This document shows, one piece after another, positions 1-5,485 of a stretch of 5,485 bases of DNA. Under the pieces are notes generated by a model. It saw only the letters and a list, made by a program, of their open reading frames with translations. It searched no databases and was not told where the DNA came from. Every line of letters begins with the position of its first letter. Positions within the stretch are counted from its first letter, which is position 1. Source of the DNA: a virus (lineage: Duplodnaviria > Heunggongvirae > Uroviricota > Caudoviricetes); the IMG/VR virus record IMGVR_UViG_2671180669_000009. The stretch is one strand, 5' to 3'. A program made the position numbers and the translations under genes.

Positions 1-51
1 CTGCATGACAAAGTCATCGGGCATTATCTGAACATAAAACACTATCAATAA
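1..51 (+). CDS. insB: IS1 transposase InsB, C-terminal fragment (5' end outside window)
   Basis: In-frame translation [16 protein letters not shown] then TAA at 49-51, identical to the C-terminus of the 167-aa InsB ORF at 3064..3567. Confidence 0.8.
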   Translation: MHDKVIGHYLNIKHYQ

Positions 52-66
52 GTTGGAGTCATTACC
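44..66. repeat. IS1 right terminal inverted repeat (about 23 bp)
   Basis: atcaataagttggagtcattacc is the imperfect reverse complement of the left end ggtgatgctgccaacttactgat at 2815-2837. Confidence 0.85.
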
Positions 67-158
67 AAAAAAACCGCCGAAACGGGTTAAGTGCGGGTGC
101 GTTGAGGATGCCTGACACATCAAAGGTGGCGGGAGATTACTCTCCCGCCTGGTCACTC

Positions 159-314
159 TTACTCTCTAGATTCGTAGTCTACGAAAACAGCGACCTCCGT
201 CTGGCCGATTCGGATTCGTACCTCGCAGAGGTCTTTCCTCGTTACCAGTGCCGTCACAATGACGGTTAAACAGATGACGATCAGGGCGATTAACATCGCC
301 TTTTGCTGCTTCAT
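159..314 (-). CDS. hok: Hok/Gef-family type I toxin (51 aa, small membrane peptide)
   Basis: Internal ATG at 314-312 with AGGAG 9 nt upstream. The product MKQQKAMLIALIVICLTVIVTALVTRKDLCEVRIRIGQTEVAVFVDYESRE has a single TM helix followed by the conserved Hok C-terminal region (TRKDLCE..GQTEVA..YES), closely resembling HokC/HokD as I recall them. Confidence 0.85.
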   Translation of the reverse strand: MKQQKAMLIALIVICLTVIVTALVTRKDLCEVRIRIGQTEVAVFVDYESRE

Positions 315-371
315 AGCCTGCTTCTCCTTGCCTTTCGGCACGTAAGAGGCTAACCTACATTTGTGAGACAT
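159..371 (-). CDS. mok: Mok-like overlapping reading frame (70 aa; in-frame N-terminal extension of hok that couples hok translation)
   Basis: The ORF starting at ATG 371-369 (MSHKCRLASYVPKGKEKQA...) runs in frame into hok, as in chromosomal mok/hok loci; weak GAGG about 9 nt upstream. Confidence 0.5.
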   Translation of the reverse strand: MSHKCRLASYVPKGKEKQAMKQQKAMLIALIVICLTVIVTALVTRKDLCEVRIRIGQTEVAVFVDYESRE

Positions 372-420
372 AGATTGGGCCTCAGATTAATGTTAAGCGT
401 CTTGCAGGACGCGTAATGTT
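360..420 (+). ncRNA. sok: Putative Sok-like antisense RNA overlapping the mok start region (boundaries approximate)
   Basis: By analogy with hok/sok loci, where the antisense RNA overlaps the mok translation start. Candidate sigma70 elements TTGCCT (338-343) and TAACCT (361-366) with a 17-nt spacer; hairpin gcgtc-ttgcag-gacgc at 397-412. Not verifiable without expression data. Confidence 0.25.
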
Positions 421-651
421 AACTGGGGCTTTTCTCTGTCTGCCTTACAGTGACATACCCGAGGCAGACAGCCTCAAGCACCCGCAGCAATCTTACCGAC
501 ACCGATAAGAAAACGCTATTTTTTATTGCCAGCACCATCTATCCAGGCTAGTTTATCTGCGTCAGAACGGCGCAATGCGCTCGCCTGAGATACGTTTACT
601 TGCCATGGTAACAACAGGTAACGGCAATTGCTGTTTCTGTTTTGTTTCCTT

Positions 652-690
652 CAAAAACCCCGGACCATCAATCCGGGGTTTTTGTTTGTT
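652..690. terminator. Rho-independent terminator, bidirectional (ends the minus-strand operon that stops at 769)
   Basis: Perfect 7-bp GC-rich stem ccccgga (658-664) / tccgggg (672-678) with a 7-nt loop, flanked by AAAAA (653-657) and TTTTTGTTTGTT (679-690). Confidence 0.75.
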
Positions 691-768
691 AACCCCAACG
701 GCAAATCGAATACACCACCAGCGCCACCGCCATCGCAATTCCTACCGTGGTGAATGCCTCAGGCCAGG

Positions 769-1134
769 TCATTGATTCACCTCCTGCGGTGGTTCCGGTA
801 GCGGCATCCAGTGAGTTGAGCTCTCTACTTCAACGCCGTCTTTGTCCACAAAAGCCATCTTATTCCCGCCACGAGTGGGGCAAAAAACCTTATCCCAGGA
901 ACCGGGGAATACATTCCCGAGATCATCGAGAAGAATCACATCGCAATATTCAGCAGGAACTGCATCACTACAGCTTATCCAGCCAGCCGGAGCTACCGGA
1001 GAGTTGCCAGCCTTACGCATGGCCATTTCCACGATTTCAACCATATCTCCTGGTGGAATTTTACAAAGTTGCCCAATACATTTCTGCTGCCTGGCATATT
1101 CGAGAATGTGCTCCAGTTTGGTTCGATTAATCAT
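769..1134 (-). CDS. Hypothetical prophage protein (121 aa), last gene of the minus-strand operon
   Basis: ATG at 1134-1132 overlaps the TAA of the upstream gene (TAATG), with AAGGGAG upstream; the ORF ends about 90 nt before the terminator. No family recognised from sequence. Confidence 0.6.
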   Translation of the reverse strand: MINRTKLEHILEYARQQKCIGQLCKIPPGDMVEIVEMAMRKAGNSPVAPAGWISCSDAVPAEYCDVILLDDLGNVFPGSWDKVFCPTRGGNKMAFVDKDGVEVESSTHWMPLPEPPQEVNQ

Positions 1135-1799
1135 TATTTATCTCCCTTAAGCATGGCAGCGCGGCAGGCGTTCCAGCCATCAACATAATCAAACGTATTA
1201 CTATCGTTTGGCCCGATTTCATCCGGCACTATCGGCTCTGGTTGGATAGTGACGTTGGCAAAGGCAGCACGCAAACCGGTTTTAATTTCTTCGATTTCAT
1301 CAGAGCCAAGCGATGAATCTGACAGTGCGTGATGGAATGCGTAAGCCATGTCGTCGTTTACTGCAACCGGCACTGCCGGCGCTGCGTAAAGCGGTGTTAT
1401 ATCTGCCCGAAAATCACATGCTTTATGCAGTCGTACCCAACACTCAACTTCCGCTTTGTCAAAATATATAGCAGTGAACGTATTAGATTCCTGGTCAACT
1501 TGAGTAAACGTCACCTTCCACGCTACAGCTACGGCTTTCCATCCATCAGGTTGTCGCATTCGCGGGGCAGCATAAAGCTCATGCATTCCATCAGGCAGCG
1601 AGTGACCCACATACTCACCGAACCCGTCAATACACATGCCCCCATCTTCAACAATGCATTCCGCTACAGGCTCTGCTTCCAGTGATGCCAGAGCGATAAG
1701 CGCCAGTTCACGAATTTCACCGCCGTCTATATCGTCAATATCATCGCGGCCAGAAATGTTAGCCAGCCATTGCAGTCGCTCTTTGGTAATAGTGGTCAT
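1134..1799 (-). CDS. Hypothetical acidic prophage protein (221 aa)
   Basis: ATG at 1799-1797 overlaps the TGA of the HNH gene (ATGA). Long open frame, D/E-rich, with the motif LYAAP occurring twice (aa 75-79 and 137-141). No family recognised. Confidence 0.65.
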   Translation of the reverse strand: MTTITKERLQWLANISGRDDIDDIDGGEIRELALIALASLEAEPVAECIVEDGGMCIDGFGEYVGHSLPDGMHELYAAPRMRQPDGWKAVAVAWKVTFTQVDQESNTFTAIYFDKAEVECWVRLHKACDFRADITPLYAAPAVPVAVNDDMAYAFHHALSDSSLGSDEIEEIKTGLRAAFANVTIQPEPIVPDEIGPNDSNTFDYVDGWNACRAAMLKGDK

Positions 1800-2161
1800 G
1801 CCGTAGCCCCTTCTTGATATTTTTCAAACCAGAACACAACCGGGTCAGATTTCATTTCAACCAATCCCATACGAACCAGCGCTTTGCCTTTCCCGGACGC
1901 AAGGAATTCACGACGACCATCACTGATAATTCGTCGATAATCTTCCAGGCTACTGCAATGCTTGTGCAGATTGCATGGGTGGCATGCTGGTACCATGTTG
2001 GATATATCGTCACGTTCCTGGTGAAGCATATTTCCATCAAAACGAATGACCGGTTTTACATGGTCTGCATGCCACTTTTCGCCAAGTTCGCAGCCGCAAT
2101 AAGCGCAGCGACCACCGAACTTCATGCGCAGTTCTGCACGTTGTTTTTTCGTCAGTGCCAT
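1796..2161 (-). CDS. HNH endonuclease (121 aa, phage-type small HNH nuclease)
   Basis: MALTKKQRAELRMKFGGRCAYCGCEL..WHADHVKP..NMVPACHPCNLHK carries the CxxC / HxDH / N / CxxC-H signature. Start chosen at ATG 2161-2159 with AAGGAAA upstream; the ORF track's longer version from 2251 adds 30 residues that do not look like protein. Confidence 0.8.
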   Translation of the reverse strand: MALTKKQRAELRMKFGGRCAYCGCELGEKWHADHVKPVIRFDGNMLHQERDDISNMVPACHPCNLHKHCSSLEDYRRIISDGRREFLASGKGKALVRMGLVEMKSDPVVFWFEKYQEGATA

Positions 2162-2162
2162 A

Positions 2163-2381
2163 TCAGCTTTCCTTATACGGATTAATTTTATTGTGCAGTG
2201 TGTTGAATGACGCCCATACCACGTCGTTATACAATTCAATAACTGGCTCAATTATTTTTCCGATTATCCAGACAAAAATTAGCGGGGATATCGGTGTCAT
2301 CAACACGATAAACAGAATGAGAAACAGGAATTCTGTTGTTCTACTCTTTCGCGGATATTTTTTTCTAAATAATGTAACCAT
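2163..2381 (-). CDS. Possible small membrane protein (72 aa; basic N-terminus then one hydrophobic helix)
   Basis: MVTLFRKKYPRKSRTTEFLFLILFIVLMTPISPLIFVWIIGKII...; its TGA (2165-2163) is one base from the HNH ATG (2161), giving a stop-N-ATG junction. Weak RBS and a GC hairpin directly upstream, so the start is uncertain. Confidence 0.35.
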   Translation of the reverse strand: MVTLFRKKYPRKSRTTEFLFLILFIVLMTPISPLIFVWIIGKIIEPVIELYNDVVWASFNTLHNKINPYKES

Positions 2382-2473
2382 TCATTACCGCCCTTTCGGG
2401 CGGTCTCCTGATGATTTGAGGGTGCAGAAATCCCTCCGGTTAAGGATTAAATTTTTAACAGTGCTAAATTTAA

Positions 2474-2814
2474 TTATTCAGTTCTGGATTTTGTCGCCCT
2501 GCGTATCCGCGCTTTCGCGTTACGCTCAATCTGTATCAGCTTTTCTATATTTCTCCGCCTTTCCTGTTCCTCCTGGCGCAATAGCCTTACATCATCTGCC
2601 AGTCTGGTTTCTCTTTTTGCCACAGAGAGCATCCAGTCAAACGGCTCCACAACCGCACCGCAGATTTTACAGCGGACCTGACGCTCTTTTTCGTCAACCC
2701 GTACAGAGGCGTGATGGCAATATGGTCTTTCCGATGGCTCATAAAGAAAATTAACCTGATTACGTGGGTCATCCTCTTTTACCGGAAATAAAACGATATT
2801 GCTTAACTCATCTT
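2474..2814 (-). pseudogene. 3' portion of an IS1-interrupted ORF (zinc-ribbon-like protein, about 118 aa when reconstructed)
   Basis: Open frame ...DDPRNQVNFLYEPSERPYCHHASVRVDEKERQVRCKICGAVVEPFDWMLSVAKRETRLADDVRLLRQEEQERRRNIEKLIQIERNAKARIRRATKSRTE* ends at TAA 2476-2474 and is cut at 2814 by the IS1 left end; the matching 5' part with ATG and RBS is at 3584-3705. Confidence 0.6.
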
Positions 2815-2837
2815 GGTGATGCTGCCAACTTACTGAT
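2815..2837. repeat. IS1 left terminal inverted repeat
   Basis: ggtgatgctgccaacttactgat, imperfect inverted match to the IS1 right end seen at 44-66. Confidence 0.85.
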
Positions 2838-2869
2838 TTAGTGTATGATGGTGTTTTTGAGGTGCTCCA

Positions 2870-3145
2870 GTGGCTTCTGTTTCTATCAGCTGTCCCTCCT
2901 GTTCAGCTACTGACGGGGTGGTGCGTAACGGCAAAAGCACTGCCGGACATCAGCGCTATCTCTGCTCTCACTGCCGTAAAACATGGCAACTGCAGTTCAC
3001 TTACACCGCTTCTCAACCCGGTACGCACCAGAAAATCATTGATATGGCCATGAATGGCGTTGGATGCCGGGCAACTGCACGCATTATGGGCGTTGGCCTC
3101 AACACGATTTTACGTCACTTAAAAAACTCAGGCCGCAGTCGGTAA
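2870..3145 (+). CDS. insA: IS1 InsA (91 aa; zinc-finger/HTH transposition regulator)
   Basis: [39 protein letters not shown]...[12 protein letters not shown] matches the InsA sequence as I recall it. Confidence 0.95.
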
Positions 3146-3567
3146 CCTCGCGCATACAGCCGGGCAGTGACGTCATCGTCTGCGCGGAAATGGACGAACA
3201 GTGGGGCTATGTCGGGGCTAAATCGCGCCAGCGCTGGCTGTTTTACGCGTATGACAGTCTCCGGAAGACGGTTGTTGCGCACGTATTCGGTGAACGCACT
3301 ATGGCGACGCTGGGGCGTCTTATGAGCCTGCTGTCACCCTTTGACGTGGTGATATGGATGACGGATGGCTGGCCGCTGTATGAATCCCGCCTGAAGGGAA
3401 AGCTGCACGTAATCAGCAAGCGATATACGCAGCGAATTGAGCGGCATAACCTGAATCTGAGGCAGCACCTGGCACGGCTGGGACGGAAGTCGCTGTCGTT
3501 CTCAAAATCGGTGGAGCTGCATGACAAAGTCATCGGGCATTATCTGAACATAAAACACTATCAATAA
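3064..3567 (+). CDS. insB: IS1 InsB reading frame (167 aa; expressed as the InsAB' transposase via a -1 frameshift)
   Basis: [53 protein letters not shown]...HYLNIKHYQ, overlapping the 3' end of insA in the -1 frame. Confidence 0.9.
3119..3127 (+). promoter_or_regulatory. IS1 programmed -1 ribosomal frameshift motif (A6C slippery site) between insA and insB'
   Basis: TTAAAAAAC lies in the insA/insB overlap just before the insA stop; established IS1 biology. Confidence 0.7.
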
Positions 3568-3572
3568 GTTGG

Positions 3573-3583
3573 NNNNNNNNNNN
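3573..3583. other. Assembly gap (11 N)
   Basis: Run of n characters directly after the IS1 right-end sequence. Confidence 1.
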
Positions 3584-3689
3584 GCGTGATGGCAATATGG
3601 TCTTTCCGATGGCTCATAAAGAAAATTAACCTGATTACGAGGGTCATCCTCTTTTACCGGAAATAAAACGATATTGCTTAACTCATCTT
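3584..3689. repeat. 106-bp duplicate of 2709..2814 (the flank just left of the IS1), with one mismatch (2765 t vs 3640 a)
   Basis: Direct base-by-base comparison; the copy begins immediately after the N gap. Confidence 0.95.
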
Positions 3690-3705
3690 CTGGTTTTATT
3701 TCCAT
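3584..3705 (-). pseudogene. 5' portion of the zinc-ribbon ORF (start codon plus first ~40 codons); continues into the duplicated flank
   Basis: ATG at 3705-3703 preceded by AAGGAGAGGAG; MEIKPEDELSNIVLFPVKEDDPRNQVNFLYEPSERPYCHHA... is in frame with the 3' portion at 2474..2814 once the duplicate is aligned. Confidence 0.5.
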
Positions 3706-3762
3706 GCTCCTCTCCTTTGATGCGAATGCCAGCGGTAATTGAAGCCTGATAGCTAATTTCAT

Positions 3763-4185
3763 TCACAGTATCGCCTCCTGAAAATTACCCTGATAGAAAG
3801 CCAGTACACGCTGCATAGCTTCGCTCTTCCGGCACTCGCGACAGATTATATTCAGGCGCCTGTCGTAGCGGCGTATTTCTCCGTCAGGTAATGACCAGAT
3901 AAGGTCCGGATCAACAACAACCGGTTTCCTCACCTTTACTCTCGAGAGTTTTTTGCGGGCGCTTTGCCAGTCCTTGCGAGCCTGTTCAGACGGGAATAAG
4001 CCGTAGCCAGAATTATATACATCACCACTTGCGACCAGTTCTATGCATAAGCGACCGACAGACGCACGACTGATACCTGTTTCATCTGACAACTGCCGAA
4101 TCGTGACCCGACCGTCCTGATGCACGAGTTCCACAATTCGCGTCTTCAGTTCTTCCCGCTGTTCGGGAGTAAAAGGTTTCGCCAT
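3763..4185 (-). CDS. Hypothetical prophage protein with N-terminal helix-turn-helix / winged-helix-like region (140 aa)
   Basis: ATG at 4185-4183 with AGGAGG 6 nt upstream, 14 nt after the dnaC-like stop. Segment VTIRQLSDETGISRASVGRLCIEL resembles an HTH; basic C-terminal half. Confidence 0.75.
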   Translation of the reverse strand: MAKPFTPEQREELKTRIVELVHQDGRVTIRQLSDETGISRASVGRLCIELVASGDVYNSGYGLFPSEQARKDWQSARKKLSRVKVRKPVVVDPDLIWSLPDGEIRRYDRRLNIICRECRKSEAMQRVLAFYQGNFQEAIL

Positions 4186-4199
4186 AAATCCTCCTGAAA

Positions 4200-4946
4200 C
4201 TACTTAACAACCCTCGAATGGCTAACATTCGGACGCCAGCTCTCCCAGTTAAAATTCACCCAGCGCCCGCCGTTCATGACCATGCGATCCATCACCCGCT
4301 CGCCGAGCAATGTTTTCATCACCTCATAGTTCAGGTTTGTCAGCATCCCCACGCTGCGCATCGACGCTGTCCGGCGATCAACAATCTGGTGCAGCACCAC
4401 CTGCTCGTTTTTCGTCTCGCGCTGAATGCCAATTTCATCAAGAACCAGCAGATCCACTTCGCACAGCTCCCGCAAAAATTTTTCGCCTGACTGCCCGTCG
4501 TCATAGCTGGCGTGCAGGGCGCTCATAACATCAGCCACGGTAACCACAATCACTGTCTGACCGTCTTTCAGCAGGCGATTCCCGATAGCTGCCGCTAAGT
4601 GATTCTTCCCGGTACCAGGTTTTCCGCTGAACGCAAAATTTGTACACCCGGTCATCAGTTCATCGGCGATGGATTTCGCCTGGCTTAACGCGTATCGCTG
4701 GCCGTCGTTCTGCACCTGGTAATTCGCAAACGAGCATTTACGGTGCAACGGCTGGATGCCTGAGCGATTCAGAATTTTTTCCACCCGCAACTGGCGATTC
4801 AGGCGGTTGATCTCCTCGCTACGTTTCTGGCCTTCAGCAAGTTGCCACTCGCGCCACTCCGCTACCGTTCTGAATGGGGCGGTTACATGTGGCGGGGTCA
4901 GTCGGCGGATGCGTTCCAGAACGCCGCCTGTCGCAATATTTTTCAT
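4200..4946 (-). CDS. DnaC-like replicative helicase loader (AAA+ ATPase, 248 aa), prophage paralog
   Basis: Walker A FSGKPGTGKNHLAAAIG, Walker B DLLVLDEIG, and MLTNLNYEVMKTLLGERVMDRM; collinear and roughly half-identical to E. coli DnaC as I recall it (e.g. RSGIQPLHRKCSFANY vs RSGIRPLHQNCSFENY). Confidence 0.92.
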   Translation of the reverse strand: MKNIATGGVLERIRRLTPPHVTAPFRTVAEWREWQLAEGQKRSEEINRLNRQLRVEKILNRSGIQPLHRKCSFANYQVQNDGQRYALSQAKSIADELMTGCTNFAFSGKPGTGKNHLAAAIGNRLLKDGQTVIVVTVADVMSALHASYDDGQSGEKFLRELCEVDLLVLDEIGIQRETKNEQVVLHQIVDRRTASMRSVGMLTNLNYEVMKTLLGERVMDRMVMNGGRWVNFNWESWRPNVSHSRVVK

Positions 4947-4952
4947 GGTCCG

Positions 4953-5431
4953 TTACCCCCTGAAGCCTGGCGGGATCGCACTGTCCGGCAACGAGACGGT
5001 GTTAACCTGTCGGAGCAACGTCTCAGGCCGAACACCTTTCGGCGCGAACAGGCCCTGGTATTCATTGGCGATGCTGTGTCGAATCACCTGCTCAGGTGTA
5101 AAACCCTGCTGACGGAATTTTTCCAGTTCCCGTATCGCCCCGTTAGCGCCCTGCTCCGTTCGAATCGGTTTTCGCAATGCCTGTCTGAACCGGACCCACT
5201 CATGCCAGAGTGTTTCCGGCAACCAATCGGGCAGCTCAATAGCCTCCGGCTCGAATTTTTTAGACGCTCGTTTTTGGCGAGGGGGAGATCAGTATTTAGA
5301 TCTTCCTCTTCCTCTTCCTCTTCCTCTGGTAACGCTTTTTGATCCGTTTGTGTAACGCTGGCAGCGTTACCTTTTCGTTTCAGTTCGCGTATTTTTGTTA
5401 CTCGCTCGTTTGTAACTGAAGTGGTCAACAA
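4953..5431 (-). pseudogene. DnaT-like primosomal protein gene with an apparent frameshift (N-terminal frame 5431..5084, C-terminal DnaT-like frame 4953..5288)
   Basis: C-terminal frame ends ...LRQVNTVSLPDSAIPPGFRG*, resembling the DnaT C-terminus, and sits directly upstream of the dnaC-like gene as in the chromosomal dnaT-dnaC pair. The N-terminal frame (TTG start, basic region, E8 tract) is offset by one base; the two join cleanly if the G5 run at 5281-5285 were G6. Confidence 0.55.
5301..5327. repeat. Hexanucleotide tandem repeat (tcttcc) x4.5, encoding a poly-Glu (E8) tract on the minus strand
   Basis: tcttcctcttcctcttcctcttcctct read directly; in frame with the N-terminal part of the DnaT-like ORF. 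Confidence 0.9.
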
Positions 5432-5485
5432 AAACTGGCCACCGAGTTAGAGTTTTTCCAGTATCGATTTTCCGATTCGTTTGGG

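Follow-up and report, generated by a model that had tools for sequence, protein, structure and literature searches.

A very probable dead ydaU remnant with a 10-bp deletion and an IS911 insertion in a Rac-type cryptic prophage of Shigella sonnei type

The window analyzed here, a whole stretch of 5,485 nucleotides from a viral sequence record, very probably carries on its minus strand at 4953–5416 the dead 3' remnant of ydaU, which bears two independent lesions; ydaU is the replication-initiator gene of a Rac-type cryptic prophage, here in a chromosome of Shigella sonnei type. A first-pass annotation had described a DnaT-like gene of about 158 aa starting at TTG 5431 and split by a frameshift at a G5 homopolymer next to a poly-Glu repeat. 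It offered three explanations: a sequencing error, a genuine inactivating mutation in the prophage replication module or a phase-variable tract. The minus-strand frame split with its one-base offset, the GGGGG run at 5281–5285 on the plus strand and the run of eight Glu residues, encoded by a perfect 6-bp repeat, are indeed present in the sequence. Among the three explanations a genuine inactivating mutation of a prophage replication gene turned out to be the right one, although what broke the frame is the loss of 10 bp between two direct repeats, TCCCCCT, and not a one-base change in a homopolymer. The second lesion is an insertion of IS911. Both lesions are seen directly, and the loss of ydaU function in the window is considered likely on the basis of the sequence. 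The remnant is a genuine pseudogene fixed in the lineage and an instance of typical prophage decay. Its correct label is ydaU pseudogene (10-bp deletion plus IS911 insertion), replacing that of a DnaT-like gene with a homopolymer frameshift. Sequences of this remnant are already present in public genomes; beyond the right annotation the remnant matters little. The features of the window are compiled in Table 1.

Table 1. Positions of features in the window and the basis of their assignment.
Feature	Position	Strand	Basis or remark
Hok/Gef-family toxin ORF	159–371	-	Pfam labels of identical genes in L014–L021
DUF551 ORF	769–1134	-	Pfam labels of identical genes in L014–L021
221-aa ORF, no Pfam hit on record	1134–1799	-	Identical genes in L014–L021
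HNH-like ORF	1796–2251	-	Pfam labels of identical genes in L014–L021
ydaV, intact DnaC-like helicase-loader gene, 248 aa	4200–4946	-	Begins 6 nt after the ydaU stop
ydaU 3' remnant, equivalent of codons 108–262 with internal 10-bp deletion	4953–5416	-	Aligns to intact ydaU nt 322–789
Residual 89-codon ORF, DnaT-CTD-like domain	4953–5222	-	ORF listing; TTG 5222 is an internal Leu codon (DW-L-PE)
Chimeric 115-codon ORF	5084–5431	-	ORF listing; 5 codons of the IS911 IRR, ydaU codons 108 to ~160, about 65 out-of-frame codons
Deletion scar, sole surviving TCCCCCT (AGGGGGA on the + strand)	5280–5286	-	Alignments A1 and A3 and regular-expression locus survey
(GAGGAA)n in-frame hexanucleotide repeat, poly-Glu	5301–5327	-	Tandem Repeats Finder: period 6, 4.5 copies, 100% matches
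IS911 right end, terminal inverted repeat TGAAGTGGTCAACAAAAACTGGCC on the + strand	5417–5485	-	69/69 identical to annotated Sf6 IS911

Megablast of positions 4900–5485 against complete E. coli genomes and phage records matched 4900–5416 to Rac-type prophages with 93–98% identity. The annotation beneath the match names either a 'hypothetical protein' or a 'phage replication initiator YdaU family protein' and, after it, 'ydaV: ATP-binding protein'. In its intact form ydaU is a single ORF of 262–264 aa immediately 5' of the DnaC-like ydaV and not a gene of about 158 aa from TTG 5431; the copy in the window is truncated by IS911 at codon 107/108. Membership in the YdaU family was judged by full-length similarity to the profile or protein, corresponding to about 262–277 positions. 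Intact YdaU from a related locus (L005) is covered from end to end by phrog_2509 'replication initiation protein' (1.2e-89, positions 1–262). The N-terminus of YdaU is a phage initiator domain according to the PHROG profile match, the C-terminal half of the intact protein matches phrog_6451 'primosomal protein', and PGAP names the intact homologue 'phage replication initiator YdaU family protein'. A Pfam search with intact YdaU and both window ORFs returned no family at E≤0.01. The pseudogene derives from a YdaU family member and is itself no functional member, because the window keeps only the equivalent of codons 108–262, distributed over two frames.

Compared with YdaU of the E. coli Rac prophage (ydaU-ydaV-ydaW operon, PHROG 2509) the window gene shows 93–98% nucleotide identity across the retained 464 bp, occupies the same site directly 5' of ydaV and has the same C-terminal sequence once it is repaired. 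It differs by the lack of codons 1–107, due to the IS911 insertion, and by the frameshifting 10-bp deletion. Of the order ydaT, ydaU, ydaV expected for the family, the window shows ydaV 6 nt past the ydaU stop; the upstream side is occupied by IS911 from position 5417 and ydaT falls outside the window. In contrast to the E. coli Rac loci, the window and the S. sonnei loci are also devoid of the ydaW/DUF1627 gene after ydaV. In the E. coli Rac-type loci L001–L003 we observed a gene of 762–777 bp between ydaV and the DUF977 gene, which is absent from the window (4185–4200) and from the S. sonnei loci. YdaU is co-transcribed with the DnaC-like loader YdaV; the function of ydaUVW is still described as undetermined (PMC11014345). 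The architecture of the Rac-type initiators, an initiator domain fused to a DnaT-like C-terminal domain and encoded 5' of a DnaC paralogue, may be of mild general interest.

In alignments with homologues, the intact alleles contain 10 extra bases exactly at the frame break. The 10 bases TCCCCCTAAA are missing in the window between two 7-bp direct repeats TCCCCCT, the intact alleles reading GATC-TCCCCCT-AAA-TCCCCCT-CGCC and the window GATC-TCCCCCT-CGCC. The window was aligned with three intact alleles, and a second alignment added L005 as a fourth intact allele as well as L023, which keeps the 10 bases despite homopolymer errors. The G5/C5 run at 5281–5285 belongs to the repeat copy that was kept, and it is not shortened. 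When the 10 bp are put back, the translation of the window corresponds to residues 108–262 of L005 YdaU with a single difference, Glu8 instead of Glu6. Since a loss of 10 bases is equivalent to a loss of one base modulo 3, one added base restores the ydaU frame as well; as had been predicted, an additional C/G joins both frames to a continuous ORF, which comprises 159 codons with the junction ...DLNTDLPPRQKRASKKF... Loss of one repeat plus spacer between short direct repeats is the classic footprint of slipped-strand mispairing. Slippage of this kind probably removed one unit of TCCCCCT-AAA-TCCCCCT, and the loss shifts the ydaU frame by -1 after codon Pro(160). Reads of the source strain containing TCCCCCTAAATCCCCCT would contradict the single TCCCCCT copy.

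The distribution of the deletion was read directly from ten NCBI loci encoding a YdaV identical to that of the window. The 10-bp deletion is found in nine of these ten loci and the remaining one, L005, holds the intact 262-aa allele; the deletion junction is furthermore contained in 12 IMG/VR contigs. Concordance with these independent assemblies suggests that the base calls of the window assembly are sound. Three of the nine deletion-carrying NCBI loci are confirmed from papers as S. sonnei, namely HE616528 (strain 53G, phylogenetic group II), CP014099 (FDAARGOS_90) and CP022457 (2015C-3566). The deletion is an inherited one, since 53G has it in common with further S. sonnei genomes. A 43-nt query that seeds solely across the deletion junction gave no match in 5,426 complete E. 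coli genomes; as a positive control the same query recovered all nine deletion loci locally with the low-complexity filter switched on. Neither the deletion junction nor the IS911-ydaU junction was found in the scanned GTDB species-representative genomes, presumably because Shigella is merged into E. coli in GTDB and lacks a representative of its own. Searching proteins with the 115-aa ORF as query gave just 8 partial YdaU fragments. Because none of these fragments includes the out-of-frame tail, the search is unusable for counting deletion alleles. Locus L005 (GCA_031665325.1, JARKNJ010000001.1) encodes at 5206–5994 an identical YdaV along with intact YdaU of 262 aa, with the 10 bp retained and 3 GAGGAA units. 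The prophage at this locus is fuller, including ydaT, Q-like, holin and lysozyme genes, and may represent an undecayed relative of the S. sonnei element.

The second lesion was identified at the upstream border of the remnant. Homology to ydaU ends at 5416, corresponding to ydaU nt 322 in codon 108, and the 107 N-terminal codons are absent. Beyond this point all 69 bases of 5417–5485 match the right end of the annotated IS911 in phage Sf6 and an IS end in L004, an S. sonnei locus. Within the window the IS911 end reads ...CCACTTCA and the element terminates with ...GTTGACCACTTCA, and the last 20 OrfB codons together with the TGA stop (5427–5425) are readable in frame 1 (...RYWKNSNSVASFC, then stop). 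The assignment to IS911 follows from the terminal inverted repeat and the OrfB 3' end, both identical to the reference element. IS911 continues past the window end at 5485, which places its other junction and with it the 3-bp target-site duplication outside the window, and the partner contig L025 likewise begins within the IS. As 5417–5485 is the end of IS911, TTG 5431 sits inside the IS911 inverted repeat. What had been taken for an N-terminal frame therefore consists of IS911 sequence in ORF codons 1–5 (5431–5417), the rest being codon 108 onward of the 262-aa gene. The resulting ORF of 115 codons extends from TTG 5431 to the stop at 5084; it reads ...VTNERVTKIRELKRKGNAASVTQTDQKALPEEEEEEEEDLNTDLP before the frame is lost, and ...KRKGNAASVTQTDQKALPEEEEEEEEDLNTDLP is followed by out-of-frame residues. 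Protein-search hits to this ORF, none of which matches it in extent, were confined to its in-frame part. The second minus-strand frame, offset by one base, ends with ...VNTVSLPDSAIPPGFRG and a stop at 4953. Exact-product look-ups with the chimeric ORFs of 115 aa and 114 aa found no such gene on record.

A strain-restricted insertion of IS911 between ydaU nt 321 and 322, probably the later of the two events, has taken away the first 107 codons from this locus. The IS911-ydaU junction recurs exactly in the independent contig L025, which has 8 GAGGAA units versus 4 in the window. Elsewhere in S. sonnei, where the deletion is still present, ydaU is interrupted by a different IS at nt 104–108 or, in the case of 53G, by none. 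Because S. sonnei genomes sharing the deletion differ in this way, we infer that the deletion is older and shared, followed by later, strain-specific IS insertions. All S. sonnei loci retrieved have this prophage broken up by multiple copies of IS1, IS3-family elements and IS911, at sites that differ between strains. The window ydaU is a typical case of pseudogenization of Shigella prophage genes by IS elements and small deletions, with nothing distinctive about it. Both the 10-bp deletion and the IS911 junction serve as S. sonnei lineage or strain markers, which gives them modest practical value.

We weighed the two remaining explanations for the frame split against a genuine deletion. If the run at 5281–5285 were in truth G6 and had been shortened by a sequencing or assembly error, the gene would be continuous, consistent with the single frame obtained when one base is added to the run. 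Errors of this type do exist in the related assembly L023 (CP026824), where four runs are each one base short. The gap relative to the intact alleles, however, amounts to 10 bp and not to 1 bp, the identical 10-bp-deleted C5 sequence is present in the nine NCBI loci read and the 12 IMG/VR contigs, and the product of a single-base repair to G6 would be devoid of Leu-Asn-Pro, residues kept in every intact homologue seen. We therefore consider an error at this homopolymer to be practically negligible. In L023 (CP026824.1, 3300–3800) every homopolymer of ydaU (C5, C5, G4 and G5) lacks one base and the ydaV call comprises 229 aa, a pattern which indicates uncorrected long-read homopolymer errors and contrasts with the 10-bp deletion of the window. 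As every run in its ydaU is shortened, the sole C4 case is an assembly error, and protein P0006, encoded by this DNA, was rejected as a true C5-to-C4 frameshift allele.

Hardly any weight can be given either to a phase-variable tract or a programmed ribosomal frameshift at C5/G5 that toggles the full-length protein. Such a switch would fit a short homopolymer located at a frame junction with an adjoining hypervariable repeat. Yet in a regular-expression locus survey the C5 length never varied: it was the same in 21/21 other deletion alleles and, for intact alleles, in each of the two repeats. Intact homologues are single ORFs that need no frameshift, the two-frame organization is not conserved, and the 107 N-terminal codons are gone from the window regardless. 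The sole variable tract, (GAGGAA)n, always changes its length by multiples of 6 bp and so keeps the reading frame. With 4 full units in the window and 1–8 in related loci, this repeat is hypervariable: we counted 1, 3, 4, 5, 6, 7 or 8 units in S. sonnei-type loci which are otherwise about 99% identical (survey of the window, L004–L013 and L023–L035). The repeat, which encodes a poly-Glu linker, behaves like a VNTR-like, fast-changing marker; among published MLVA/VNTR loci of S. sonnei, none of relevance to (GAGGAA)n came up in a search of the literature.

The designation DnaT-like, which had been applied to the whole gene, holds for one part of it. YdaU residues 170–262 align with the C-terminal domain of DnaT in a phmmer search of solved structures (PDB 2ru8_A, E=9.5e-5; residues 92–179 of 9zbt chain D, E=3.2e-4), and the C-terminal tail VNTVS-PDS-IPPGFRG is nearly identical in YdaU and DnaT. 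Assignment to DnaT requires 201 bits with the NCBIfam equivalog PRK02854, whereas the scores obtained against this model were 15.7–17.5 bits and covered the last 19 residues only. The N-terminal oligomerization domain of DnaT (residues 1–91) gave no alignment in searches of curated models and solved structures. Since the C-terminal domain aligns, the DnaT model score stays far below the cut-off and the N-terminal domain is unmatched, the term is valid for the C-terminal domain only and fails as a family label: YdaU is a phage replication initiator of the YdaU family and no DnaT orthologue. Homology to E. coli DnaT (PDB 2ru8, 9zbt) thus directly extends over the C-terminal ~90 residues, while YdaU has an initiator domain in the place of the DnaT N-terminal domain. 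The residual 89-codon ORF matches phrog_6451 'primosomal protein' at profile positions 180–272 (1.7e-29), its DnaT tail scoring 17.5 bits. Both dnaT, in the dnaT-dnaC gene arrangement, and ydaU are located immediately 5' of a DnaC-type loader gene. In the E. coli preprimosome it is the C-terminal domain of DnaT that forms filaments on lagging-strand ssDNA, and on its own this domain can bind ssDNA (PMC13377028). By analogy, the C-terminal domain of YdaU may handle ssDNA in a similar manner before the DnaC-like YdaV acts.

The dnaC-like gene, which had been presumed intact, is directly seen to be so: ydaV encodes 248 aa matching NCBIfam PRK12377 across 1–248/248 (8e-154), in addition to the DnaC equivalog (1.7e-91) and the Pfam families IstB_IS21 and Bac_DnaA. 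The window YdaV protein is identical to that in S. sonnei genomes and is encoded in many assemblies. A point against full inactivation is that the 89-codon ORF with its DnaT-like domain remains beside intact ydaV. We asked how probable it is that this ORF (4953–5222, or a version starting further in) continues to be expressed and serves YdaV as a stand-alone partner, conceivably by read-out from IS911 orfB in the same direction. The co-orientation of IS911 orfAB with ydaU and ydaV would allow this, S. sonnei genomes share an intact and identical ydaV, and the C-terminal domain of DnaT alone binds ssDNA and forms filaments in the E. coli preprimosome (PMC13377028). In the intact gene, however, TTG 5222 is an internal Leu codon, the closest GGAGG lies ~20 nt upstream of it and hence beyond the normal distance of a ribosome-binding site, and a promoter scan of 4150–5485 detected no sigma-70-like site. 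Homologues naturally starting near TTG 5222, which the first-pass annotation had named as a counterargument to a split gene, were not found among those seen. Furthermore, S. sonnei is a young clone, and for this reason the identity of ydaV is uninformative on selection. Expression of the stand-alone ORF is accordingly regarded as very unlikely, and a dead ydaU remnant is the preferred reading. Slightly more improbable still is a co-option in S. sonnei of a retained module made up of intact YdaV and the free-standing DnaT-CTD-like ORF, possibly transcribed from IS911. If this were true, the module might, for example, modulate replication restart or the loading of host DnaB. Selection might then have favored the 10-bp deletion that is shared, as it would disarm a harmful initiator while sparing YdaV and the DnaT-CTD-like ORF.

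Apart from the lesions, a cluster of the motif AGCGTTAC(C) was noticed at 5329–5371 (L005: 5572–5615) within the linker-coding part of ydaU. It is composed of two direct copies 23 nt apart and an inverted copy that gives rise to a 9-bp palindrome (GTAACGCTG/CAGCGTTAC). The sequence CGTTAC occurs 8 times in the window versus 1.9 expected, with 3/8 occurrences inside the cluster. In bacteriophage lambda, ori lies inside gene O. By analogy the cluster could contain candidate origin iterons of the oriJ type; the literature searched confirmed only an active Rac origin and did not give the map position of oriJ relative to ydaU.

We also noted that the window consists of two scaffolded pieces with N11 (3573–3583) between them, beside a copy of IS1 at 2815–3572. 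An 86-codon ORF listed at 3502–3762 spans this gap and was discarded as an artefact. In most S. sonnei genomes the pieces 1–3572 and 3584–5416 map to separate prophage loci (for example at about 1.98 Mb and 3.09 Mb in CP104423). A stretch of about 106 bp occurs on either side of the gap (2709–2814 and 3584–3689; region 2709–3689). Locus L024 has the two pieces in one contiguous sequence, where about 218 bp take the place of the N11 of the window.
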